Origin: a virus
Taxonomy: Duplodnaviria; Caudoviricetes
Direction: 5' to 3' (one strand)
IMG/VR virus record: IMGVR_UViG_3300042563_003046
Coordinates: 1-60,646 of that record
DNA: 60,646 bases
Of the stretch, positions 54-59,975 are shown piece after piece. The notes below the pieces were generated by a model that was given only the letters and a program-made list of their open reading frames with translations, was not told the DNA's origin and did not search any database. Each line of letters opens with the position of its first letter. The first letter of the stretch is position 1. Made by a program: the position numbers and the translations under genes.

Positions 54-406
54 ATGTGGGAGATGTTTTTGACTTTGCCAGAAAACTTGAACGCGAACTA
101 GCCGCCGTCACCGAGCAGCGGGACGAAGCGCGGGAGGAATTAGCCGAACTAAAGGCGGAATACGGAACGTGGTGGGCGCAGAAACGCATCGCAATTGATG
201 AGCTAAAGGAAGTCACCGAGCAGCGGGACGCAGGACGGCGGGAAATTAAGCAATTAAAAGTAAAACGATGCGAGTTTTGCCACGAACTACCTCAGACGGA
301 AAATGAAAAAGCGTATGCGGCTGAGTTTGGCGATAAAAAAGGTGAATTGCCAACAATGGATGAGTGGCTACAAAACCAATCCGTAACCAACCCGAACGAA
401 CTATGA
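1..406 (+). CDS. 3' part of array family B coiled-coil protein (copy B2; starts at 60568 across the junction)
   Basis: Frame continues from ATG 60568 (MNETETPRTDEMREAY...). The N-terminus is identical to 59823..60221, with VTEQRD repeat units. Confidence 0.8.
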   Translation, partial: DEMREAYVNFQHGKYTVDVGDVFDFARKLERELAAVTEQRDEAREELAELKAEYGTWWAQKRIAIDELKEVTEQRDAGRREIKQLKVKRCEFCHELPQTENEKAYAAEFGDKKGELPTMDEWLQNQSVTNPNEL

Positions 407-5000: not shown

Positions 5001-8000
5001 AGCGTTTAACTGGGGTGCTCATATCACCACGGAAGATGTTAAGCCATCCTTTCTGCGCTTTGTATGCCCCGTATTCAAACATGGGCATCTCGAGGAGTTC
5101 TACAACTGCTGAGAAGTCGATGTTCGAAAGATCGGAAGATGCGCTAGAGCTCTGCCCAAAACTCGTAAAGAGTTTAAATGGAACGCCCGCCTCGAAAGCG
5201 CGATCATTGTGTTCGTCTTTGATCTCTTGCAATTCCTCTGGTGTAATATTCTCATCTTTAGTAGCCGCTCGATATGACTTCATAATCACATCAATATCTT
5301 CGATCCTAGCTGTTCTGACCGCTGGAGAAAACATCCGAGTAACATAATTTTTTAGGTCTTTACTACCATTTTGTGTATCAAATGTAACATCCAAACTTTG
5401 GCCATAGCGCCTCCATAGGTTAGCTGCCCTATTACCTTTTGGGTTTACATGAATCGCATGGTATAAATCTAGCTTGCCATCTGGCGTAGTCGCCGCATCT
5501 ACAAATTCATTCAGCTCGCTTGCAATTTGAATCTTAGATTGTTCTATGAAGTTAACTGAATGCTCATTAAGTTTCCTTTTTAGGTCGTTAGATAAACGCT
5601 GTCCTTGAGCGCTATTCAGGATTTTGTCCTGTAACCAACTAATCTGATCTTCTATGTCTATTTGAGCTCTTCTGATTTTTCTATCTAGCGCTGATCCTTT
5701 TGTGAAATCATCTAACTTGTTAGCTCGAGCCATTTGAAATCCCATAGATGGCCATGTGTAGTAACCATTCATCGACTCATTTAATTTTATACCATATTTA
5801 GATTGGTCTGTTCCTGTGGGGAATAACAATGCTACTACGTCTGATATAGACCGATCAATATTTAGGGAATCAAGATATCCAATTTTAAAAGATCTCTTAA
5901 GGAAGTTAGACCCATCGCCGCCACCCAAGGTCTCAATGCCTAACGCTTTAATGGCGCTATTGTTTGAAACAAGGGCGTTCATTAGTGTTGCAGCAAATGG
6001 AATTTTGGCCGCTTCTTGTGTAGTCCCGCCATCTCGACCCAACCAACCAACATGGATGCTGTTCTCGTTCTTAATATCTAAATCGACTGATACCACAGCT
6101 GTTTGTTTGTTAGCTACCCATGGGTTGTTATTCACCTTTTCATATGCGCTAACTTCGTATCTATCTTTACCTACTGAGACTACCTTGAATTGGAATAATC
6201 TATCTCCATACTCAATTCTCAGCGCCTTAATAGTATCTTCCAGCGCCTGTCTATCTATGTTCTCGATTACTTTAGTTTCAGTAGGATTCAACGCACTGAG
6301 GATTGCTTCTATGTCTAAGTTTGTTGACTCCATGTCGGGATCAAAACTCAGGGGTAACCCATCGACTACTAAGTCAGGGGGCGTTTCAAGATCAGTTCCC
6401 CCACCAAGGAGCGCCATTGGCGCCGTCATAGAACCATTAGCTCTGGCAGCTGCTTCTTCAGCGATAACACTATCTGGTGTATTCTCCGCGTAGTCATATC
6501 TGAATGTTACGGGGATCGGTGTGCTAGGATCCAATCCTAAGCTCTTCATTTTTTCAACGAGAATAATAGCTGCTATAATCGCTTCCGCCTTTACATTATC
6601 TATTTGCCCATCAGTAGTATAAGGCACTAGATCAAACGTAGAACTATCTGGGTCATAGGTTGATAGTAACTCTACTGCTTGAACTTCTTGCACTGGTCGG
6701 CTCGTTAATGATAATACTAGTCTATCAAATTCCTCTAGCTCGTCTACTATGGTATCATAATAAGCGTCGCCATCGTCCGCGAAATATAGATTGAGCGCCT
6801 GATCAATACTCCTGTTTAACCCGAGCGTGTTTTCTAGATCCTGTAGTGATAGCGTATATGATACTGAGAATAATTCTGGCCTATCTGGAGGGGCTGTCCA
6901 CCTTGCTGCAGGTGAACTAGGTGTGCTGCTAGCCGTAAAGTCAAGATCACCTTGGACGGGGGTAGTAGGCGCCTTATTAGTCGGTGCTACCGCAGCAGCC
7001 TCATCATCTACAATCTGGTTACCATTGATGACTCGAAGTCCTGCTTGTTGCATAAGTCCAGCAAACGTAGTTAGCGGTAATCCTGATGTCGCCAGTGCTG
7101 CCATTCTATCTTGTGCTTCGTATAATGCATCTGTCTCATCGAGGATGTTATAGTTTAAGATGCGGTTATATTCTGCGATTGCTTCAGCTGGAGAATTTGT
7201 ATCCAGCGCTCTGTAAGCATTCGTTTTTGCAAAACCCATGTTGATGGCTTGCATCTCTTGCATCATGGCAAAGACAGCAGCATCCATAGCGCCAGAACCC
7301 ATACCGAGTTTCTTACGATTGAGATAGCTGTTGAGCGCCCCACCGATGTATCTCTTTAATATGCGCAGCAGAGAGGGCTTGCTCGTCCAAAAGGCTATGT
7401 CATCCTCGGTGGTGTAACCACGAGTTACTTGTTGTAAGCGCATACGCAGCTTCTCTTCTACAAGAACACGCTGCTGTTGGCGGACGACTGTAGGATCGCT
7501 AGATGCGAGTTTAGCTAAAACGTCTGCAACATTCTGCGGGTTATTAATGTGGTAGGCTCTAGCAATTTCTTCATAAGCTGAATTAGATAAGCTATCCACA
7601 ATGATATCTACCTCACCTTGTGTAAGAGACCCAAATGATGCGTGGTGACCGAGTTCTTCGTTAAGAATAGAATCAAGAATAGAACGTTGGGCTAGTGGGT
7701 CTAGCTCATACATCTGGGACATTAAGATCGCAGGATTAATCCTGATCACATCGCCCTCTGCCTCAGCAGCGCCCTCAATAGTTTCGTCTCTGATTACCCG
7801 AGTGCCCGCAGGTATACGTGTATTCAGCCATCGCATTAATTGCACGAACTGAGCTTTCTGTTTTTCTGTTGGTAGCTTTTTGCTACCTGATGCTATTGTC
7901 TCCTCTATGCTGGCCTCTGTTTTATCGCGGTCAGCTTGATCCGAAGCGGTTGTTTCAGTGTCAGCTGCTGTCGCCGCCTCTGTCGTTTCTGTAGCTACTG

Positions 8001-16196: not shown

Positions 16197-16302
16197 AGTG
16201 GTGCTGTAATAAATTTCGCTTACACTATTAAAAACTTTCTTTTAATTCTATTGGTGCTCTAATAAATTATTACAGCACCAATACGTCATATAGAAAGTTT
16301 TT
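16197..16302. repeat. 106-bp AT-rich element, inverted copy of 49916-50021
   Basis: Reverse-complement match with about 4 mismatches; contains three TGGTGCT(G/C)TAATAA boxes. Confidence 0.92.
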
Positions 16303-16331
16303 ATTCCCTACAAAGAGGAGCTGACCAAGAT

Positions 16332-20589: not shown

Positions 20590-21888
20590 ATGAAGACATT
20601 ATATCCAAAGCAACAAGAAGCGCACGACTTTTTTGTATCGTGCCTAACTAAGAACGTTAACACACTAGACTCATCAGATGTAGGAACAGGTAAGACAATT
20701 GTCGCCTGCCACATTGCGAAGACCTTGGGCAAACCATTCTTCGTCATGTGCCCTAAAGCGGTCATACCATCTTGGGAACGTGAAGCAGCAGCCTGTGGGC
20801 TTAAACCGCTGTTTGTCATGAACTACGAGAAACTACGAACTGGAAAAACTCCATGGCTAACAAAGCGTGGTAAGAAAATATTCAACTGGAAGTTACCAGA
20901 AGGAGCTATCGGGTTCATCGACGAGTGCCATAAAGCAGGAAACCCGTATACGCAGAATGCGCAGATGGTAATCGCTCTACACAAAGAAGATTTCCGTATT
21001 CACTTGATGTCAGCTACATCAGCTAATGATCCAACGGAGATGCGAGCAATCGGATACGCCTTAGGTTTGCATTCTCTCAATGAAGCGCAAGCGCCACTTA
21101 AAAGTTGGTATCGATGGATGATGGATTATGGCTGTGTGCAAAATACATGGGGTGCGTGGGAGCTGCGTAAGAAGAACAAGCTATCCCTTTTGCATGATCA
21201 AATTTATAACCGTAATGCGAAGAGGCTTACCGTAGCTGACTTCCCTGATTCATTTCGTAAGAATAGGATCTTTGTGGAGAACATTCAGTTTTCTAATCTC
21301 AGCAAGATTCACGCGGCATACAAGAGTCTTAATATTACACCAGAAATCATCGAGCGATACATTGAGCTAGGCACAGTAGAAGATAGCGAGCACACTCTCG
21401 TGAACCTGTTACGAGCTCGACAGTTGGCTGAGTCTTTTAAAGTAAATGATATTGCTGAAATGGTCGATGAGTTATTGTTAGAAGAGGCCAGCGTGGTTGT
21501 CTTCATGAACTTCCGTGAAACAGCAGAAGCATTAGCACTAACCCTAAGGTGCGAGAAGATCGTTGGTGGACAATCGGCAGCTGATAGACAGCGGATCATT
21601 GATGACTTCCAGTCGGATAAAACGCATGTGCTCGTTGTTAATATTGCAGCAGGTGGCACTGGCATTAGCTTGCACGATCTGAACGGTGATAGACCACGTG
21701 TATCTCTGATATGTCCTACGTTTAATGACAAGGACTACATGCAGGCACTCGGACGCATTCACCGCAACGGAGCAAAAAGTGATGCCGTGCAAAAGATTTT
21801 AGTTGCCAATGGGACGGTTGAGGAAGTAGTTATCAAATCCATCCAGAACAAGATCGCAAATCATGACATGCTCCATGGAACAAAATAA
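20590..21888 (+). CDS. Superfamily 2 (SNF2-like) helicase
   Basis: GTGKT, DECH, SAT, AGGTGISL, QALGRIHR. Confidence 0.92.
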   Translation: MKTLYPKQQEAHDFFVSCLTKNVNTLDSSDVGTGKTIVACHIAKTLGKPFFVMCPKAVIPSWEREAAACGLKPLFVMNYEKLRTGKTPWLTKRGKKIFNWKLPEGAIGFIDECHKAGNPYTQNAQMVIALHKEDFRIHLMSATSANDPTEMRAIGYALGLHSLNEAQAPLKSWYRWMMDYGCVQNTWGAWELRKKNKLSLLHDQIYNRNAKRLTVADFPDSFRKNRIFVENIQFSNLSKIHAAYKSLNITPEIIERYIELGTVEDSEHTLVNLLRARQLAESFKVNDIAEMVDELLLEEASVVVFMNFRETAEALALTLRCEKIVGGQSAADRQRIIDDFQSDKTHVLVVNIAAGGTGISLHDLNGDRPRVSLICPTFNDKDYMQALGRIHRNGAKSDAVQKILVANGTVEEVVIKSIQNKIANHDMLHGTK

Positions 21889-21892
21889 ATTT

Positions 21893-22198
21893 ATGAATAC
21901 AAAACAAACTAACCCGCTGGCAGCGGTTGCTCCAGCCACGCCTTGTTCGGCTGCTTGCCCTAAGTGTGGCAGTCTGAACATCCACCGCCATCATCGCGCC
22001 CCGAAAGAAGAGTGGTCGCGAAATATCGGGGAGAACCGCAAGAACTACGAAACGCCGTGGGTCAGCTATGTCGGATACTCCGCAAAAGCTCTCAAGGAGT
22101 GCATTACCCACCACTGCCGCTGCTGCCAGTGGAAATGGGAATCCGATTGTCTGCCGAACGATCAAAGTGAGGCACAGCCTCCAGCAACAAATCTATGA
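21893..22198 (+). CDS. Cassette A gene, zinc-ribbon protein
   Basis: CPKCGS...CRCC; stop inside attC1. Confidence 0.75.
   Translation: MNTKQTNPLAAVAPATPCSAACPKCGSLNIHRHHRAPKEEWSRNIGENRKNYETPWVSYVGYSAKALKECITHHCRCCQWKWESDCLPNDQSEAQPPATNL
21913..21951 (-). mobile_element. Truncated attC (R'' and L'' half only)
   Basis: Minus strand reads GCCGAAC AAGGC GTGGCTGGAGCAACCGC; no L'/R' arm is visible toward the helicase. Confidence 0.65.
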
Positions 22199-22250
22199 AT
22201 ACACCAAAAGACTCAACGGGAGGCTGTTGTCCTCCACCGCCTTGTTCGGC
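22153..22250 (-). mobile_element. attC site 1 (98 bp)
   Basis: Minus: GCCGAAC AAGGC GGTGGAGG ACAACAGCCTCC...GGAGGCTGTG CCTCACT TTGATC GTTCGGC. Confidence 0.9.
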
Positions 22251-22548
22251 TTCTTTGGAGGCCGTTCAATACGCCGACTACATCCTAAACCACTACTCGC
22301 GGGATAGTCACGCTGACAAGTTGTGCCTCGCCCGTGACTTGGAGCGGCACGGGTGGTCGAGTGACTTGTTCGGCGATTTGAGTGCGGATGCGAAACAAGC
22401 GGTCGCATGGCTGTTTAGTGACCATGCCAAAAAGCTCTCAGTCATCGAGGCTCGCGCCTGCATCTTGGAAGGATGGGGAAAGCGCGTGGACGACGAACTG
22501 CGAGCTTACTTTTCGCCAAACGCCAAGGTATCAGACCGCCCATCATGA
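22195..22548 (+). CDS. Cassette B gene, hypothetical protein
   Basis: ATG in the attC1 loop (ATGA overlap); stop in attC2. Confidence 0.75.
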   Translation: MNTPKDSTGGCCPPPPCSASLEAVQYADYILNHYSRDSHADKLCLARDLERHGWSSDLFGDLSADAKQAVAWLFSDHAKKLSVIEARACILEGWGKRVDDELRAYFSPNAKVSDRPS

Positions 22549-22605
22549 AAACTCCCGAATCACAACAGACGCCTTTGGGCGGTTCTGATCACCGCCTTGT
22601 TCGGC
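22515..22605 (-). mobile_element. attC site 2 (91 bp)
   Basis: Minus: GCCGAAC AAGGC GGTGATCAG AACCGCCCA...TGGGCGGT CTGATACC TTGGC GTTTGGC. Confidence 0.9.
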
Positions 22606-22850
22606 GTTGCGTGACACACCACTTCGCTTGCGACTGCCGCGAGGCACTGATGGCGGAATCCATGAAGACGCAACGACGAGTGATCGACTGGCGGGATCAG
22701 AGCGATGAGGGCTTGAGACTGCGTTGCGGAGAACTGACCACGCAGGAAATCCGCACCATCAGGGCTGTGCTGACTGCTATTCTTCCGCCGAACGCCGATG
22801 TGATGGCAGCCGCCGACAATAAAACTCCAACGAAGGAAATGACTTTATGA
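22545..22850 (+). CDS. Cassette C gene, hypothetical protein with CxxHHxACDCRE motif
   Basis: ATG in the attC2 loop; stop in attC3. Confidence 0.75.
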   Translation: MKTPESQQTPLGGSDHRLVRRCVTHHFACDCREALMAESMKTQRRVIDWRDQSDEGLRLRCGELTTQEIRTIRAVLTAILPPNADVMAAADNKTPTKEMTL

Positions 22851-22908
22851 TACCAGAAACCATTGAAGAAACCACAGATGGCGGATTGCCATGCACGCCT
22901 TGTTCTCC
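22787..22908 (-). mobile_element. attC site 3 (122 bp)
   Basis: Minus: GGAGAAC AAGGC GTGCATGGC AATCCGCC...GGCGGCT GCCATCAC ATCGGC GTTCGGC. Confidence 0.88.
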
Positions 22909-23212
22909 GTCTTTTCGGGCTGGAGATGATGTTCGCCACCTGCCATCTGGTGAAAACTGGAAGCTCGCCACGGATGAGGAAAACGGGTGGGTGTCTCCAT
23001 GCGGATGGCCGCCTACACTAGCCGAAGCGAAAGACTGTGTGTTGCAGTTCGCCGCCGACGATAATGAGAGGATGGAGATGCTGAAAACATGGGCAGCAGA
23101 GGGGCGCGGCTACGAGCATGAGCGCGACCACCGAACCCGCACCGCTCGCCACCAGATTTCTTCCGAGAACGCTGAGGTGAGGCACGGCGCTAAGGACGCT
23201 GACCTCGACTAG
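22847..23212 (+). CDS. Cassette D gene, hypothetical protein
   Basis: ATG in the attC3 loop; FRAGDDVRHLPSGENW...GWPP; TAG in the attC4 loop. Confidence 0.75.
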   Translation: MIPETIEETTDGGLPCTPCSPSFRAGDDVRHLPSGENWKLATDEENGWVSPCGWPPTLAEAKDCVLQFAADDNERMEMLKTWAAEGRGYEHERDHRTRTARHQISSENAEVRHGAKDADLD

Positions 23213-23249
23213 AAACTTTCCCGCCGTTGCCTCGACCGTCTTGTTAGCC
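23164..23249 (-). mobile_element. attC site 4 (86 bp)
   Basis: Minus: GGCTAAC AAGAC GGTCGAGGC AACGGCG...CGCCGT GCCTCACC TCAGC GTTCTCG. Confidence 0.9.
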
Positions 23250-23288
23250 GTTCGGGGTGCGTCGGAAAACCGAAACAAACACACGAAT

Positions 23289-23504
23289 ATGGACAACCTA
23301 CGAAAAAACATCGAATCAGCAATTAACGCCGCCAGTGCGGAAAACGGCAGTGACACTCCCGATTTCATCTTGGCCGAATATCTCACGGACTGTCTCACTG
23401 CATATGACAAAGCGGTGGTGGCGCGTGAAAAGTGGTATGGACGGCCAGAACTCCCAAAGCCATTTCCTTCGGCTAATAGCAAAGATCAATCACCGCAAGG
23501 TTGA
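23289..23504 (+). CDS. Cassette E gene, small conserved phage protein (ENGSDTPDFILAEYL type)
   Basis: ATG 23289 after an A/C-rich leader; stop in attC5. Confidence 0.75.
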   Translation: MDNLRKNIESAINAASAENGSDTPDFILAEYLTDCLTAYDKAVVAREKWYGRPELPKPFPSANSKDQSPQG

Positions 23505-23523
23505 TTGCATCGATCTGTTCGAT
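23471..23523 (-). mobile_element. attC site 5 (53 bp, minimal; R' reads ATT instead of GTT)
   Basis: Minus: ATCGAAC AGATC GATGCAATC AACCTTGCGGT GATTGATC TTTGCT ATTAGCC. Confidence 0.75.
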
Positions 23524-23529
23524 AAACGC

Positions 23530-23775
23530 TGACATGCCGTTTAGTATGTCACTACACTCGCGCTCATTGCATTGAGGGCATCTGAAACAGAATGAGGGGG
23601 AGCCGTACGCGGCGAACTCAATACGTCTGGATGAGCAACCTGAACAGTGGGTGCGAGTGTGGTGTGACTGAGATGGTTTAAGGTTGACGCAGATAGAGCG
23701 GGGATATGTTCTGCAACGTATCGCTGCCCGTAGATTCGTATTCTACCACCACACGACTTGCTGCCGTAAGCAGCT
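23530..23775 (+). ncRNA. Candidate structured non-coding RNA
   Basis: Intergenic; five stems, including a 19-bp stem (23551-23569 with 23645-23663) whose non-Watson-Crick pairs are all G-U on the plus strand. Confidence 0.5.
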
Positions 23776-23794
23776 ACTAACCAATAATAAAAAT

Positions 23795-49868: not shown

Positions 49869-50038
49869 CGATGTATTTACATCTCGTTGGTGCTGTAATA
49901 AATATATATTGAGAAAAAAACTTTCTATATGATGTATTGGTGCTGTAATAATTTATTAGAGCACCAATAGAATTAAAAGAAAGTTTTTAATAGTGTATAG
50001 GAAATTTATTACAGCACCACTTAAATGTAAATACATCG
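49869..50038. repeat. Nested palindromic AT-rich element containing the second 106-bp copy (49916-50021)
   Basis: cgatgtatttacat...atgtaaatacatcg outer arms; four TGGTGCT(G/C)TAATAA boxes. Confidence 0.9.
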
Positions 50039-52475: not shown

Positions 52476-52528
52476 AGTTACCACTTAGCCGACAACGGCG
52501 ACCAACTAACCTACCAACTAACCTACCA

Positions 52529-53434
52529 ATGACCACTACCTACAAACCAACTGTCCCACATAGCCGACTACTCAAGGCGGCTGCTGAACTCATCCAAGGC
52601 ATCACCACTGAAGCCAAGGCAATTGTCGCCGAGAATCCAAACGGCAGCAACGCCACATGGGCTGGTGTCTTCCGCAAGCTGATCCGTCAGGCAACTGACA
52701 TCAGCTTGGATCGCCTCGAGTCCCCCGCCTTTACCATCTTCGCAGAAGACGGCAACTCCAAGCTGCCATTCGCAGCATTCTCTAGCATGGCAGTGCTCGA
52801 CTGCCCCGCCCGTGGTGCTTGTGAAAGCTGGTGCTACTCTAAGTCTGCATGGCGTAACCCCAATGCAGCGGGACGTCAGATCAGCAACTCCATGCTACTA
52901 CGTAGCGATGCGGGACGTGATCTCATTACCAAGCAGTTTGCTACCCTAAAGGGTAAGGTGCTACGACTCTACGTAGATGGTGACTTTCACTCGCAGAATA
53001 ACCTACGCTTCTGGATGGATCTGCTTAAGACTCGCCCTGAGGTAGCTTGCTACGGTTACTCTAAATCGTGGGAAATCTTCATCGGCTTGCACCTCTCCCG
53101 CTATGAGTTTCCCGCTAACTACATCCTGAATCTCTCAGGCGGTAGCAAGTATGACGACAGAGTCGGTGACTGCACCCGTGAGATCATGATGCAGCTGCCC
53201 ATCACTCGAGGCATCTTCGCAGCCTACCAAGTGCCCCGCCACCATATGACAAGCAAGGCTTACCAAAGCAAGCGTAACGAGGGACATGCAGCCTACGCTG
53301 CAGATGTCCGCAAGGCGGCAGGCAAACGGGTCTTCGTTTGTGCAGGGCGCTGCGGCGATTGCCTCCCCGATGGCACTCATGCTTGCGGTTCTGACCGCTT
53401 CCGTGGAATCGAGATCGCCATCGGTATCCACTAA
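52529..53434 (+). CDS. Gp88-like (radical-SAM-related) protein
   Basis: GNSKL, DCPARGACESWCY, LRLYVDGDF, YGYSKS, C-terminal CAGRCGDC. Confidence 0.7.
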   Translation: MTTTYKPTVPHSRLLKAAAELIQGITTEAKAIVAENPNGSNATWAGVFRKLIRQATDISLDRLESPAFTIFAEDGNSKLPFAAFSSMAVLDCPARGACESWCYSKSAWRNPNAAGRQISNSMLLRSDAGRDLITKQFATLKGKVLRLYVDGDFHSQNNLRFWMDLLKTRPEVACYGYSKSWEIFIGLHLSRYEFPANYILNLSGGSKYDDRVGDCTREIMMQLPITRGIFAAYQVPRHHMTSKAYQSKRNEGHAAYAADVRKAAGKRVFVCAGRCGDCLPDGTHACGSDRFRGIEIAIGIH

Positions 53435-53476
53435 CCCCCTAAAGGGGAGTTCATACTACGGTAGTATGAGCTCCCC
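53435..53476 (+). repeat. Early-region hairpin element copy 4
   Basis: ggggagttcatactacggtagtatgagctcccc. Confidence 0.9.
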
Positions 53477-53506
53477 AAACATTCTCCAACACATACACAT
53501 ACACAT

Positions 53507-53755
53507 ATGATACCAACACCAACACACGAATTCCACCCCACCTTCACACCTCAGGAAATCTTTGCTCGAGACCAGCGAGCCCTCGCCTACCTCACAGGTA
53601 TCGACGCAGCCCGAGGTCACAAGGACGGGACATCAGCCCTGAAACCTGCACCCCTAACCATCCTTAGTGTTCCCTACCTAATACCCGCTGCAGTTCTGAA
53701 GCACATGGTAGAGCGTGTGTCCATCACACTGGAACACATCACCCGTAACCTGTAA
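53507..53755 (+). CDS. Early hypothetical protein
   Basis: ORF after an A/C leader. Confidence 0.6.
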   Translation: MIPTPTHEFHPTFTPQEIFARDQRALAYLTGIDAARGHKDGTSALKPAPLTILSVPYLIPAAVLKHMVERVSITLEHITRNL

Positions 53756-53760
53756 CCCGT

Positions 53761-54117
53761 ATGAAAGTCCGCATCTACTTCAACCTACACCGCAAGCTCT
53801 TCACGATCCAGCGCCGAACCCCCAAGGGCTGGCGTGTGGCTAGTCATGCACGGGTTATAAGCCTGAGCTTCCCCCAGTTCAAGGTCAGCGAGGCTGGCAG
53901 GCAGCGTGTGCTCCGCGAGAAGCGCAAGAATGTCCATGCCTTCGTCGAGGGCTACCACGAGCTAGCCTACATGCAGCTCGAGGAGATGCAGCGTGTGACC
54001 TACAACCCCTACAAGTGTGGGTCGTTCGTCATCGCTGAGACACAGCAGCCTGTCAGCGATGGGCGCTACCTCATCGGCACTGTCACGGACGGCAAGCCTA
54101 CCCTCCATGTCCTGTGA
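53761..54117 (+). CDS. Conserved phage early protein
   Basis: YFNLH...FKVSEAGRQRVLREKRKNVHAFV...VTYNPYK motif set. Confidence 0.8.
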   Translation: MKVRIYFNLHRKLFTIQRRTPKGWRVASHARVISLSFPQFKVSEAGRQRVLREKRKNVHAFVEGYHELAYMQLEEMQRVTYNPYKCGSFVIAETQQPVSDGRYLIGTVTDGKPTLHVL

Positions 54118-54153
54118 TTCGAACCGACCTTAAAAAAATATTGAAAAAAGAAT

Positions 54154-54181
54154 TTGACACTATCTCAAAACCTGATAACTT
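54154..54181 (+). promoter_or_regulatory. Early sigma70-like promoter
   Basis: TTGACA-N16-TAACTT, extended TG, UP element. Confidence 0.7.
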
Positions 54182-54229
54182 AATAACTCATTCGCAACCA
54201 ACACCAACCAACACCAACTGAAACTGAAT

Positions 54230-55318
54230 ATGAATTATCCAATCGTTAACAACACAGCCGACCTCGCCGCATTCGCCACCATGGCACGTGACACCCGCCG
54301 CATCCTTGCCCTGTATGGACAAGGCGGTGTGGGTAAAACCACCGTGGCGGAAACGGTAATCGCTCCCGCCCTGAACATCAACCCCAACCGTGTCTATGTG
54401 GTCAACCACTCTGGGTCTGCACCCAGCGAGGTCAAGGGCACTGGCGTCCCTGACATGGTGACCCGTGAGATGTGGTTCGGCAAGCCGCTCAACGTTCCAC
54501 TCTACGAACGTATCGGTGATGCACCTGCACTGCTAGTGCTCGACGAGTATCCCGAGTGGGACGGCGCTGTGCAGTCCCTCTGCCGCTCGCTCTTCCAGCC
54601 TACTGGCAGCCGACCTAAGATCGGTTCACATGAGCTGAGCGCTAACACAGTGATCATGGTCACTGGCAATCGCCGCATCGACGGCAGCCGTTCATCTGTG
54701 CCGAGCGCCCCGTTCGTAGAGCGCTGCTTGTCCATCATATGGCAGCCAACCCTCGACCAGTGGCTCGACTGGGCTGCCGCTAACGGACTAGGTGCAAGCC
54801 CCATCTACACCTTCCTCCGCTTCAACGGTCTCGACCAGCGTGGTAAGGAGGGCGACTTCTTCTGCCCACCTGTGCAGCAACCATGGAACGGTGATGCCCA
54901 CCCCTGCCCTCGGCAATGGGAGGCTGCCTGTCAGCTCGATGACAACTCACCCCTGTTCTCCCTTGCCCTCTGGGGCTTAGTAGGTGAGGCCGCCAGCAAG
55001 GCTGCCTATGCCTTCACCGAGACGGTAGCCAAGCTGCTGCCTACTCTCGCCCTTCTCCGACAAGGTGGTGCTACCATGCCCACCGATCCGTCAACACAAT
55101 TTGCCCTCATGCACTGTGCATTGAGACAAGCGAAGCGGGAGTCAAGTGCCGATGTCGAGGCTGCTGTGGTAGGTGGCTCACTCGACTGGCTCGTCAACAT
55201 GATGCTCACCGTCCGTGGTGAGATCCGTGAATGGGCATACCGCACTGCGGTATCTCCTGCCTGCGGCATCCCACTGCAGATGCATCATCAACGACACCTC
55301 CTGCAACAGGGGATCTAA
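54230..55318 (+). CDS. MoxR-like AAA+ ATPase
   Basis: GQGGVGKT, LLVLDE, VTGNR, PCPRQWE. Confidence 0.85.
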   Translation: MNYPIVNNTADLAAFATMARDTRRILALYGQGGVGKTTVAETVIAPALNINPNRVYVVNHSGSAPSEVKGTGVPDMVTREMWFGKPLNVPLYERIGDAPALLVLDEYPEWDGAVQSLCRSLFQPTGSRPKIGSHELSANTVIMVTGNRRIDGSRSSVPSAPFVERCLSIIWQPTLDQWLDWAAANGLGASPIYTFLRFNGLDQRGKEGDFFCPPVQQPWNGDAHPCPRQWEAACQLDDNSPLFSLALWGLVGEAASKAAYAFTETVAKLLPTLALLRQGGATMPTDPSTQFALMHCALRQAKRESSADVEAAVVGGSLDWLVNMMLTVRGEIREWAYRTAVSPACGIPLQMHHQRHLLQQGI

Positions 55319-55319
55319 T

Positions 55320-55359
55320 CCCCTACGGGGTGTTCATACTACGGTAGTATGGACATCCC
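55320..55359 (+). repeat. Early-region hairpin element copy 5
   Basis: ggggtgttcatactacggtagtatggacatccc. Confidence 0.9.
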
Positions 55360-55432
55360 ACCAACCCTCTCACATCACATGCTTAACAACACAACCAACA
55401 ATACGTTTGACAACATCAACACCAATACACAT

Positions 55433-56314
55433 ATGAATACCAACGACATGAACCTGAACACCATCAACTCCATCGTATCCGCTCGCCTCATCACTGGCAA
55501 GCCTGCCATCAGCGCAGCGCTAGAGCGTCAGCATCACCACATCATCGCTGCCTCTGGCGCTGAGTCCAGTGCAGTTCGTGCCCCAAGTGCCCGCCTCTTC
55601 GCCAAGGGTGGTCTCGTTAGCGATGCCTTCAACATCGTCAACGGCATGGGCGTCTACCTCCGCAAGAAAGGAAACTCCGTGCCTGACATGGCTGGCACTA
55701 CCTACCAGCTCGCCACTGACATCGATGAGATCCAGCGTGAGTTCGACACACGCCGCGACCAACTCGATGCGCTGATCGCTCAGATCCGCAACCACTACGA
55801 GTCACTCGTAGCCAGCGGCATGGCATCACTCGGCTACCTCCGCATGGAGGTCGAGTATCCTGCAGTCGAGCAGTTCCTCTCGGACTTCCGCTTCGAGCTG
55901 CGCTGGCTGGGTCAACCTGCTGGTATCGAGGGCACTGTCCTTGGTGCTGTGTCTCGTGAGACTGCCGCCCGTATCCGTGCCTCCTCTGCACAGAACGCTA
56001 ACAGTATGCTCACCGAGGCTCACCTTAACCTGATCTCAACGGCCGTCGAAGAGATGGGCGATGTGGTCACTGCCCTGACCCAAGGCAAGCGCCTAAGACA
56101 AGAGCGCCTTGACAAGCTCGCCAAGTTGTCCGACGATCTTCAACGTAAGAACTGGCTGCAGCTGCCAGCTATCTCCGCACTGGCTGACAAGCTCCGCCAG
56201 TTACATGTCCAAGCGGACGAGCTCCCAACGGAGGACGACCGCAAGAATCACGCTAAGCAGATCGCCGCTGCACAACGGCAGGCATCCGCTACTCTCGCAG
56301 AACTCGGGCTGTAA
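55433..56314 (+). CDS. Helical protein between AAA ATPase and vWA protein (DUF3150-like)
   Basis: YPAVEQFLSDFRF motif, coiled coil, synteny; start uncertain. Confidence 0.6.
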   Translation: MNTNDMNLNTINSIVSARLITGKPAISAALERQHHHIIAASGAESSAVRAPSARLFAKGGLVSDAFNIVNGMGVYLRKKGNSVPDMAGTTYQLATDIDEIQREFDTRRDQLDALIAQIRNHYESLVASGMASLGYLRMEVEYPAVEQFLSDFRFELRWLGQPAGIEGTVLGAVSRETAARIRASSAQNANSMLTEAHLNLISTAVEEMGDVVTALTQGKRLRQERLDKLAKLSDDLQRKNWLQLPAISALADKLRQLHVQADELPTEDDRKNHAKQIAAAQRQASATLAELGL

Positions 56315-56362
56315 CCCGAGCCCTGCTCCCTGAATCCTGAACCACTAATACTGAAACTGAAT

Positions 56363-57922
56363 ATGAACGCCTACCAATACGACTTCAATACACTCGACAT
56401 CTACACTCGTGCCATGCGTCGAGTGTCCCGCTACGGACAGCTTGCCTACGGTAAGCTGCTGAGCCTCCGCCTAAGAGCGACCAAGGATACCCCCTACGGG
56501 GCAACCGATGGACGCACGTTATACCTCAACCCTGATGGGTTACATACTCTGGAGCGGACATCAGACCCCGTGGGTTACACTGCCTTCCTGCTAGTGCACG
56601 AGGCGCTGCATGCCCAGCTGTCACATGCTACTCGCTTGAGACACCTGTCCGACCAACAGACAGTCAACATCGCAGCTGACTATGTCATCAACGCAATGAT
56701 CGTGGAGATGAACCGCTCGGCGCTACATGCTGGTGCGAAGACCGCTCCCTTCCCACTCATCGACCGAGTGCTAATCGATGAGGCGCTGAGCCAAGACCGC
56801 CACGTGGTCGAGCTCTACAACATCCTCAAGGTCGAGGCTGCTAAGCAACAGCAGCAACCGCAACCGCAACCGCAACCACAACCGCAACCGCAAGATGATG
56901 CACCCGAGGATGCACAACCCAGTGACAGCGGTGACAGCGAAGGCGACAGTGACAGCGGTGACAGCGGTGACAGCGGTCAAGGCACTGGTGGCGACAGCGA
57001 TGGTGACGGTGACGGTGATGGTGACGGTGACGGTGATGGTGACGGTGACGGTGATGGTGATGGTGATGGTGATGGTGATGGTGACGATGGCACTGGCACT
57101 GGTGGTGACAGCGCAGGTGGCAAGGGCGATGGGCAAGATGACCAGAGCAATGGCAAGAGCAAGACCGCTGCCGAGGCTGACAGCGACATCCTCGGTGAGT
57201 GGGTAGGCACTAGCACTAGCAAAGGTGACCTAGCCCAACCCCAACTCGAAGAGGGTGAGACCATGGCTGACTTTGAGAACTCGGTTGATAAGGTTAACGA
57301 GTCTATCGAGCTACAAGATAAGCTCAGCGCCAGTGCTGGTATCGGTGATGGCGCTCTGCGGGAGATGGCCAAGCAACGCAGACGCTGGGCAGGTCTGGAC
57401 TGGACTGAGTATGTCCGCCAGTGGATGACCGACCGTCTCGACAACGGGTGGAACAAGCCGCTCAACGTCAGCACCTTCGCTACTACTGGTCTCGTAGAAG
57501 ATGACCGCAGCATCAACAACATGGGTGAGCTTGCAGTAGTGATCGATACATCCATCAGCGTTCCCGCCTCGGTTGTCCGTGAGATGCTAGACGCTACACA
57601 GGATGCACTCAACACCTTAGCTCCCCGATGCATCCACCTACTGAGCGCCGACCACAGGGTGCAAGAGCATCACGAGCTGACCGCTGGTGATACAGTCCCG
57701 ACAACCCTCAAGGGTGGTGGTGGCACACTGTTCGCTCCTGTCTTCAAGTTCCTTGCTGAGAACGCACCGAACATCGATGGCATCCTGTTCCTCACGGATG
57801 GTGAAGCAGCCGACTGGTCTAGCGTAGCTGACCCACAAGTGCCAGTGCTCTGGCTCGACTGGAACTCATACCGTGTGATTACATACCCATTCGGCGAAGT
57901 CATTAAAGTCAGCGTCAAATAA
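56363..57922 (+). CDS. Metallopeptidase-vWA protein (DUF2201-like)
   Basis: ATDG, HEALH, NIAADYVIN; MIDAS DTSIS, GGGT, LTDG; (QP)n and (GD)n linker. Confidence 0.88.
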   Translation: MNAYQYDFNTLDIYTRAMRRVSRYGQLAYGKLLSLRLRATKDTPYGATDGRTLYLNPDGLHTLERTSDPVGYTAFLLVHEALHAQLSHATRLRHLSDQQTVNIAADYVINAMIVEMNRSALHAGAKTAPFPLIDRVLIDEALSQDRHVVELYNILKVEAAKQQQQPQPQPQPQPQPQDDAPEDAQPSDSGDSEGDSDSGDSGDSGQGTGGDSDGDGDGDGDGDGDGDGDGDGDGDGDGDGDDGTGTGGDSAGGKGDGQDDQSNGKSKTAAEADSDILGEWVGTSTSKGDLAQPQLEEGETMADFENSVDKVNESIELQDKLSASAGIGDGALREMAKQRRRWAGLDWTEYVRQWMTDRLDNGWNKPLNVSTFATTGLVEDDRSINNMGELAVVIDTSISVPASVVREMLDATQDALNTLAPRCIHLLSADHRVQEHHELTAGDTVPTTLKGGGGTLFAPVFKFLAENAPNIDGILFLTDGEAADWSSVADPQVPVLWLDWNSYRVITYPFGEVIKVSVK

Positions 57923-57923
57923 T

Positions 57924-58010
57924 ATGAAGGACTTCATTCTCGGTATGCTGGGCGCCTTAGTCCCAGTCCTCCTCTTCATTATCTTAACCGTGTTCCTTTC
58001 ACGTATCTGA
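57924..58010 (+). CDS. 28-aa single-pass membrane peptide
   Basis: MKDFILGMLGALVPVLLFIILTVFLSRI, starting 1 nt after the vWA stop. Confidence 0.45.
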   Translation: MKDFILGMLGALVPVLLFIILTVFLSRI

Positions 58011-59826: not shown

Positions 59827-59975
59827 ACGAGACAGAGACACCGAGGACGGACGAAATGCGTGAAGCTTACGTGAATTTCCAACACGGCAAATATACCGTC
59901 GATGTGGGAGATGTTTTTGACTTTGCCAGAAAACTTGAACGCGAACTAGCCGCCGTCACCGAGCAGCGGGACGAA
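59795..59975. repeat. 181-bp exact direct repeat (second copy 60540-end plus 54-127)
   Basis: Base-by-base identity, offset 745 bp. Confidence 0.92.

Follow-up and report, generated by a model that had tools for sequence, protein, structure and literature searches.

A probable integron-type gene-cassette array with reversed genes, and without its own integrase, in a freshwater phage

In the tailed phage represented by IMG/VR record IMGVR_UViG_3300042563_003046, five small open reading frames (ORFs A to E) tile the plus strand at about 21.9-23.5 kb, with the helicase gene on one side and the p93/DUF2800 genes on the other, and are linked by hairpin-forming junctions (J1 to J5) that end in short boxes of the type xxxxAAC and GTTxxxx, which raises the question of whether such a block is an array of mobile gene cassettes and, if so, of which kind. 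The record, here called the window, is 60,646 bases long, carries direct terminal repeats and represents a complete virus genome. An earlier interpretation of the letters alone (the sequence-only reading) had proposed that the boxes are the footprint of insertion by an integron integrase. Our analysis suggests, with a probability that we put at roughly 0.8, that the island is an integron-type gene-cassette array without an integrase of its own, that is, a cluster of attC sites lacking integron integrases (CALIN), in a freshwater phage, and that its genes are reversed. By our own site criteria, four full and two partial sites lie within 1.6 kb and no integrase accompanies them. Crossover would take place within the plus-strand triplet 5'-AA/C-3' (the slash marks the cut), equivalent to G/TT on the minus strand; a cassette would consist of one site and the gene body to its right in plus coordinates, and the genes would be read on the bottom strand of the sites, along the direction of phage transcription.

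The sequence-only reading had claimed that the boxes match across each gene body and mismatch within the third to fifth sites, and this is borne out, all boxes that it quoted being present. Counting the four variable bases of each box, start and own end box are complementary at 4, 3, 4, 3 and 4 positions in cassettes A to E (18/20), versus 4, 3, 2, 1 and 1 positions for the two boxes of a single array site (11/20). Complementarity tracks cassettes rather than sites because the left box of a site in the array is a hybrid that carries the tetramer of the neighbouring cassette. Taken from the window alone, the box rule is suggestive, not conclusive; it strongly replicates outside the window. Further sites were collected with a custom finder (CTTGTT, an AAC lying 58-140 nucleotides (nt) upstream of it, and arms that pair at -12 kcal/mol or lower), which is biased to this site family, uses self-set thresholds and makes the AAC and GTT triplets of the wider sets invariant by construction. 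Complementarity at all four bases was found in 13/24 adjacent-site pairs of other viral contigs, with about 10 box types (shuffle mean 1.85, 0/10000 shuffles reaching 13), and in 44/59 new pairs from metagenome contigs (shuffle mean 5.1, 0/10000 reaching 44). Within single sites it occurred in only 5/57 viral and 9/123 metagenome cases. It was seen in 4/12 pairs longer than 500 nt versus 10/15 short pairs, and an undetected site without CTTGTT may lie between the partners of the long pairs that miss. The two boxes of a site also differ in their variety, with 3 right versus 7 left box types among nine J1-type sites and 4 right versus 6 left among nine J4-type sites. The box motif is translated as Pro-Cys-Ser in A, B and D and as Leu-Val-Arg in C; being read in differing frames, it is therefore conserved as DNA and not as protein. 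As a check it had been proposed to circularise each cassette and to fold the reconstituted site. In minus polarity this improves the energy, compared with the array site, at J2 (-14.9 to -19.4 kcal/mol), J3 (-11.6 to -14.1 kcal/mol) and J4 (-13.4 to -16.3 kcal/mol), and worsens it at J1 (-16.6 to -12.0 kcal/mol), because B's own end box has one mismatch. The expectation thus held in three of four sites, and the comparison largely restates the box rule.

The sites themselves have the architecture of attC. J1 to J4 share a common plan of xxxxAAC, an unpaired spacer of 5-7 nt, a bulged stem, a loop of 30-60 nt, the second stem arm, a spacer CG(C/T)CTT and GTTxxxx, with terminal 7-base boxes whose AAC and GTT triplets pair in the folded strand. 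Minimum free energies on the plus strand correspond to z scores of -2.8 for J1 (-17.5 kcal/mol) and -2.45 for J2 (-3.0 on the minus strand), and stability alone is convincing for J1 and J2 only. Covariation was assessed in 25 diverse sites drawn from the window and other contigs. Standard pairs occupy 92.1% of the pair cells versus 71.3% after shuffling, double changes were counted in 70 cells versus 20.4, and the covariation score of 0.486 (0.145 shuffled) was reached by 0/500 shuffles, with slid controls at 0.05-0.13. Compensatory changes were found at 10/11 inner-stem pairs, indicating the selected hairpin structure that characterizes attC. Similarly, the unpaired central spacer, the variable terminal loop and the extrahelical bases of attC are present, extra bulged bases lying on the 3' arm, opposite the plus-strand AAC, in 43/53 sites (reverse in 8, equal in 2). 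The family moreover has a conserved CGCCTTGTT, which goes beyond generic attC features. We also observed that a TT dinucleotide in the 3' arm (alignment columns 105-106) is invariant or nearly so among the 25 diverse sites, and that its second T is unpaired in the consensus fold and may represent a conserved extrahelical base. That these are not ordinary terminators, as had been argued from the boxes, agrees with our screen, in which none of J1 to J4 was called terminator-like on the plus strand. A comparison with Rfam yielded no match.

Allelic variation in nature locates the crossover. The window was aligned to assembled contigs of four public lake runs (X1 to X4), and from these alignment tables a precise cassette-deletion allele, of the kind that the sequence-only reading had proposed to search for, was read in X1, X2 (3060 nt) and X4 (1596 nt), whose contigs match the phage backbone and skip 22157-22518. 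At the joint, 22156 to 22519, 362 nt are lost, corresponding to J1 and the body of B, and AACG are the only shared bases; four bases are too few to account for the joint as an assembly artefact at k=31 or as a product of homologous recombination. The contigs lacking B also carry the helicase or p93 flanks, with few differences from the phage backbone. The joint lies between the AAC triplets of the end boxes of A and B, where a cut at the GTT boxes would give 22244/22599, so that the crossover is placed in the AAC triplet, as in attC, at a resolution of four bases, which is consistent with, and no proof of, a cut at AA/C. Homology between phages breaks at the same triplet. The body of A (21936-22159) has a counterpart of 97.3% identity in the related phage L180/L303, with homology ceasing at the AAC, at 22159, and the body of C is 82-91% identical in seven viral contigs, in all of which (7/7) every high-scoring segment pair terminates at 22793/22794, again the AAC. 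Ends on the GTT side are ragged. Homology of J3- and J4-type sites begins at the AAC box, as seen in the J3-type copy of contig L163 and, from 23165-67, in the J4-type copies at about 12 viral loci.

The plus strand is the bottom strand of these sites, and the canonical cassette direction is minus. The minus polarity given by the sequence-only reading is thus correct, while the evidence offered for it was not the right one: box complementarity gives no polarity, because a cut at G/TT or at AA/C leaves both tetramers on one cassette. Polarity follows instead from the deletion joint at AAC, the arm that bears the bulges, the loss of homology of bodies A and C at the AAC, the opposite-strand ORFs of bacterial relatives and the end at which an integrase lies on contig L286.

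On the plus strand, three of the junctions between the five tiling ORFs are ATGA stop/start overlaps. ORF E matches a phage protein family (phrog_18819), while the five minus-strand ORFs tested match nothing. Substitutions against homologues fall on plus-frame codon positions 1, 2 and 3 in proportions of 9/3/13, 4/3/12 and 2/0/4 in three comparisons, ORF B included. The plus strand is accordingly the coding strand, which puts the genes on the attC bottom strand; they cross the sites on that strand, unlike the canonical cassette, in which a promoterless top-strand ORF lies between sites with attC at its 3' end. The loop of a site carries the stop of the previous gene and, in most sites, the start of the next. 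Among 53 sites on phage contigs, an upstream ORF of at least 30 codons stops inside the site in 46, and an ATG inside the site opens an ORF of at least 40 codons through the GTT box in 33. The crossover AAC is read as a codon (phase 0) in 37/46 sites and 18/21 sequence clusters (p ~1e-6 versus one third), and in 63/86 sites and 34/49 clusters of a metagenome replicate; random AAC triplets, taken as a control, were in phase 0 in 159/398 cases, and the phases of GTT are mixed (17, 7 and 9). With the crossover AAC acting as a codon in a fixed frame, loss or exchange of a cassette would spare the reading frames. In the allele lacking B, gene A gains the tail of J2 and C retains its own start. At four sites in bacterial genomes, neither an in-site stop or start nor AAC phase 0 was seen.

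The island is an insertion into the phage backbone. GC content is 55% at 22.0-23.5 kb versus about 45% in the surroundings, and three relatives whose helicase is 90% identical (L005, L006 and L008) have no island, p93 following directly after the helicase gene. Contig L004 is 99.07% identical to the window across 7,327 nt and diverges directly past 21913. It shares the sequence through ...ACTAAC (its position 7324) and then continues into a different small gene, and in run X3 another sequence, likewise ending ...CCAA, stands ahead of 21915; the left border of the array is thereby observed at the AAC within the loop of a half-site (21913; L004:7324). This half-site, J0, corresponds by homology to the right arm and loop of complete sites (J1; the site at 2442-2535 of L164), and part of its loop is common to L004; its left arm is absent and its fold has a z of about 0. 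At the opposite end, J5 has AAT instead of AAC, and on a contig of X4 its inner part is preceded by a canonical ...GCCGAAC. In addition, a second allele occurs in all four runs, with a joint from 23148 to 23746 that skips 597 nt between CCACCA repeats and removes the last ~21 codons of D, J4, E, J5 and the non-coding flank. By sequence reading, it fuses D in frame to p93 with no intervening stop. Homologous or illegitimate recombination at the left end would have brought the array into the backbone; array entry and trimming probably proceeded by ordinary recombination, and internal turnover by site-specific recombination.

The site family is shared with other phages. A gapped J1/J4-type pattern was found at 24 viral loci (2.9 million contigs) and 68 metagenome loci, and at six loci in 185,579 species genomes (32.2 million contigs), about four of which are credible. 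One site in a Pirellulaceae metagenome-assembled genome (MAG), L182, is doubtful, and two others (L184 and L185) look like chance. Within every viral or genome-contig locus all sites are co-oriented; both strands were seen in 6/68 metagenome loci. Near-identical copies of J1 with different flanks are present in at least nine other viral contigs, a J2-type copy is present in L305, and at the DNA level J1- and J4-type sites recur nearly unchanged beside different genes. Protein searches with B and D retrieved contigs whose match was confined to the leader (B residues 1-19, 100%) or the tail (D residues 105-121) encoded by a site. The idea that a junction always travels with one neighbouring gene was rejected, as the bodies of A and C have different junctions on both sides and linkage is loose. 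In a related phage, L180 (terminase 56% and helicase 44% identical), an array lies between a RuvC-like gene and the helicase gene (L180:1600-4400) and holds cassette A, at 97% identity, at a genome position other than in the window phage; a search for relatives of cassette A found only this contig. Neither J1 nor J4 had a blastn match in 50,697 deposited phage records, and a 14-mer scan of viral contigs gave single, chance-level matches only.

Sites related to J4 also occur in bacterial MAG contigs (L183/L226 and L186/L224). L226, from a Verrucomicrobiota MAG, has five related sites with a perfect box rule and ORFs between the sites on the opposite strand, and L224 has the same arrangement in a chromosomal neighbourhood, so that these bacterial relatives show the ORF arrangement of canonical cassettes. 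On the metagenome contig L286 (1607-3688), two sites and a bottom-strand XRE-type helix-turn-helix gene ending in GCCGAAC, the cassette closest to the integrase, are followed by about 360 nt of non-hairpin sequence and a partial integrase, which scores 190 bits on TIGR02249 versus 41-46 bits on Xer models and which is placed and oriented as intI and attI should be if the polarity is minus. This arrangement ties the site family to integron integrases. The non-hairpin stretch is a candidate attI, and the reversed cassettes of L286 lie inside an apparently complete integron. A true integron integrase (445 bits, gene 480 nt from the contig start) was found in the Pirellulaceae MAG, the only one among four pattern-bearing MAGs, and no recognisable array of this family was seen near it, the generic hairpin finder being noisy in high-GC DNA. 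We infer that a host integron integrase may act in trans on folded, single-stranded phage DNA. Of the proposed integrase-insertion footprint, the integron-type cassettes hold, on the strength of the deletion allele and the boxes; the integrase would have to come from elsewhere, as the phage has no recombinase, and the left end is a half-site and not an integrase junction.

A number of observations weigh against an integron-type array. PF00589 tyrosine recombinases were found in 0/6 array-bearing viral records (this phage and G001-G005, four of the latter being at least 90% complete), and TIGR02249 integron integrases and PF00239 serine recombinases in 0/5 (this phage and G001-G004), so that the complete phage genome has no intI and attI beside the array, as a complete integron would have. 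The three MAGs with clear related sites yielded no integron integrase above cut-off, and that of L286, truncated where the available DNA stops, falls short of the 265 bits required of a full-length protein. Viral contigs contain the site pattern far more often than bacterial genomes do. Within the window, 6/120 re-pairings of start and end boxes reach 18 matches (p ~0.05); only D and E are informative, because A, B and C share one box, and the six re-pairings are swaps among these three. The box tetramers, e.g. in GTTCGGC, fit the GTTRRRY consensus poorly. By energy, J3 (z +0.2) and J4 (z -1.44) fold no better than shuffles. No circle junction is listed among the contigs of X1 to X4, a result that is uninformative either way in contigs. 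Finally, the left end of the array is not at a box, and the second common deletion uses the 6-base CCACCA microhomology and not boxes.

These points have to be set against what other explanations would predict. The lack of a recombinase in the viral genomes searched and the enrichment of the family in viral contigs would suit a cassette system peculiar to phages, driven by an undescribed phage or host enzyme other than an integron integrase or by template switching at the hairpins while the phage replicates, with the bacterial look-alikes as secondary acquisitions. Such a system might also explain the features beyond attC, namely the conserved motif, the invariant TT in the 3' arm and the start and stop codons in the loops, and the phage does encode junction-resolving proteins (Endo VII, a RuvC-like protein and a PD-(D/E)XK nuclease). 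We nevertheless consider it unlikely, since related sites occur in canonical bacterial arrays and, in L286, beside an integron-integrase-like gene, since the AAC crossover and the bulges on the opposite arm are those defined for attC bottom strands, and since template switching needs more than four shared bases at the joint. Still less probable is an inert fossil, i.e. a bacterial integron block that was captured once by illegitimate recombination and whose boxes record past bacterial events. The truncated left half-site, the degenerate right end (AAT for AAC) and the one common deletion via microhomology would be in line with decay, but lake phage backbones that are otherwise near-identical differ in having or lacking cassette B, cassette A is 97% identical at a different position in L180, and the loops hold phage-style ATGA overlaps that are absent from the bacterial sites. 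That the island consists of ordinary tandem paralogous genes with conserved ends and RNA hairpins or terminators, and that the boxes match by chance, is hardly credible: although hairpins could form in mRNA too, J3 and J4 are not unusually stable and just two cassettes are informative in the window, C reads the box motif in another frame than A, B and D, the box rule replicates with 0/10000 shuffles in two data sets, the sites are not terminator calls and a precise cassette-deletion allele exists.

An integron-type array, which we prefer, may be part of something wider. It might be speculated, with the balance standing about even, that unrelated freshwater phage lineages share a phage-adapted branch of integrons, in which backwards cassettes use attC as an in-frame translational linker, the loop supplying stop and start codons and the crossover an Asn codon, and in which small accessory genes are traded ready to express, by host integrases or an undiscovered enzyme, among lytic phages that have no recombinase of their own.

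The features of the island and their boxes are collected in Table 1.

Table 1. Coordinates of the array features in the window.
Feature	Position	Strand	Description
J0, truncated half-site	21884..21951	+	loop-like leader, ATG at 21893, right arm, box GTTCGGC at 21945-51; joins the end of the helicase gene
ORF A	21893..22198 (alternative start 21863)	+	101 residues, Cys/His-rich
J1, attC-type site	22153..22250	+ (bottom strand)	box GCCGAAC, spacer, bulged stem, loop, box GTTCGGC
Cassette B, mobile unit	22159..22520	- (canonical polarity)	J1 and gene-B body, 362 nt
ORF B	22195..22548	+	117 residues, two-module fusion; junction remnant CTTGTTCGGCG at 22365-75
J2, attC-type site	22515..22605	+	GCCAAAC ... 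GTTCGGC; ATGA stop/start at 22545-48 in loop
ORF C	22545..22850	+	101 residues; GTT box read in a frame other than in A, B, D
J3, attC-type site	22787..22908	+	GCCGAAC ... GTTCTCC; long loop, ATGA at 22847-50; arms pair
ORF D	22847..23212	+	121 residues
J4, attC-type site	23164..23249	+	CGAGAAC ... GTTAGCC; stop TAG of D within loop
ORF E	23289..23504	+	71 residues; phage protein family phrog_18819, E 2.1e-12
J5, short degenerate site	23471..23523	+	GGCTAAT ... GTTCGAT; fold z -2.18
Non-coding right flank	23505..23794		imperfect inverted repeat 23550-69 / 23645-64
Start box (GTTxxxx) of A	21945		GTTCGGC
Start box of B	22244		GTTCGGC
Start box of C	22599		GTTCGGC
Start box of D	22902		GTTCTCC
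Start box of E	23243		GTTAGCC
Next start box	23517		GTTCGAT
End box (xxxxAAC) of A	22153-59		GCCGAAC
End box of B	22515-21		GCCAAAC
End box of C	22787-93		GCCGAAC
End box of D	23164-70		CGAGAAC
End box of E	23471-77		GGCTAAT

In the loop of J1, the stop codon TGA of A overlaps the ATG of B as ATGA. ORF B is of composite structure: contigs L166 and L167 have an additional 111 nt (37 codons; L166:3136-3246) between 22356 and 22357, five further contigs (L168-L172) carry its first module only, as a separate plus-strand gene, and its seam (22357-22376) retains the right end of a site, CTTGTTCGGCG, and resembles a decayed junction at which two cassettes merged. The conserved block of J4-type sites extends about 45 nt past the GTT box, as far as the start codon of E (23243-23291), and holds a nested GTTCGG...CCGAAAC pair; different ORFs follow it in other phages. 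The cargo proteins A to D gave no family match, no NCBIfam name and no Atlas hit.

Elsewhere in the window, the gene set comprises a large terminase, the helicase (20590-21888), a DUF2800/PD-(D/E)XK nuclease, a family A DNA polymerase, a primase-like protein, Endo VII, a RuvC-like resolvase and an ORF of 4078 codons. A 36-nt stretch of the alternative small gene of L004 resembles the terminal repeat region of the window (83-118 and 59931-59966; 89% match), and a 110-nt stretch is duplicated in inverted orientation at 96% identity (about 16197-16306 and 49913-50021). Another block of high GC content (53-61%), at 52500-58000, encodes GP88-like, AAA ATPase and VWA/metallopeptidase (DUF2201) genes, and no site arrays were seen in it.

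Integrons are seen as devices by which bacteria capture genes, and the phage CALINs known so far are few and come from cultured phages. In the present case many uncultured lake phages are linked by one site family, cassette turnover is seen on a single phage backbone in nature, and a recombination site doubles as coding sequence. Should host integrases act on these arrays, a single gene pool would be common to phages and bacterial integrons, a site-specific route for the exchange of accessory genes would be open to lytic phages, and the reversed cassettes would form a systematic exception to the rule that cassettes are oriented towards the cassette promoter (Pc).

Among known systems, phages have other stem-loop cassettes. 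Promoter/stem-loop cassettes (PeSLs) are promoter-terminator motifs that act via homologous recombination. The deletion joint in the window, unlike such exchange, shares only four bases, and cassette-specific inverted boxes are not expected from it. In two studies on T4-type phages (PMC2839356, PMC4122927), PeSL cassettes are described as stem-loop motifs, repeated in variable genome regions, that border small accessory genes and indicate where genes were gained, lost or replaced; in that stem-loops flank small accessory genes here as well, PeSLs are the nearest phage-specific analogue. Canonical attC sites are closer. As set out by Nivina et al. (2016; PMC5027507), the attC bottom strand has extrahelical bases opposite AAC and crossover falls between A and C. 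The AAC/GTT R boxes, the L stem, the extrahelical bases, the unpaired spacer, the variable loop and the hybrid R box are shared with the sites of the window. In contrast to canonical attC, the window genes run through the sites on the bottom strand in a phage that lacks integrase and attI, the tetramers fit RRRY poorly, and the spacer CGCCTT and the TT bulge are conserved. The closest precedent is the report by Qi, Rajabal, Ghaly, Tetu and Gillings (2023, Front Microbiol; PMC9892861), who found 17 CALINs among 10,705 NCBI phage genomes, virulent phages included, and showed recombination of the phage-borne attC bottom strands with attI1 under IntI1. As in these phage CALINs, attC-type sites of one orientation lie between small genes of a phage that has no integrase; bottom-strand genes, in-site start and stop codons, a fixed crossover frame and one-cassette alleles, seen here, are not described in the consulted parts of that report. 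A literature search found no description of bottom-strand genes through phage attC sites, with subscription journals and supplements outside its scope. The finding is thus a reversed variant of the known phage CALINs.

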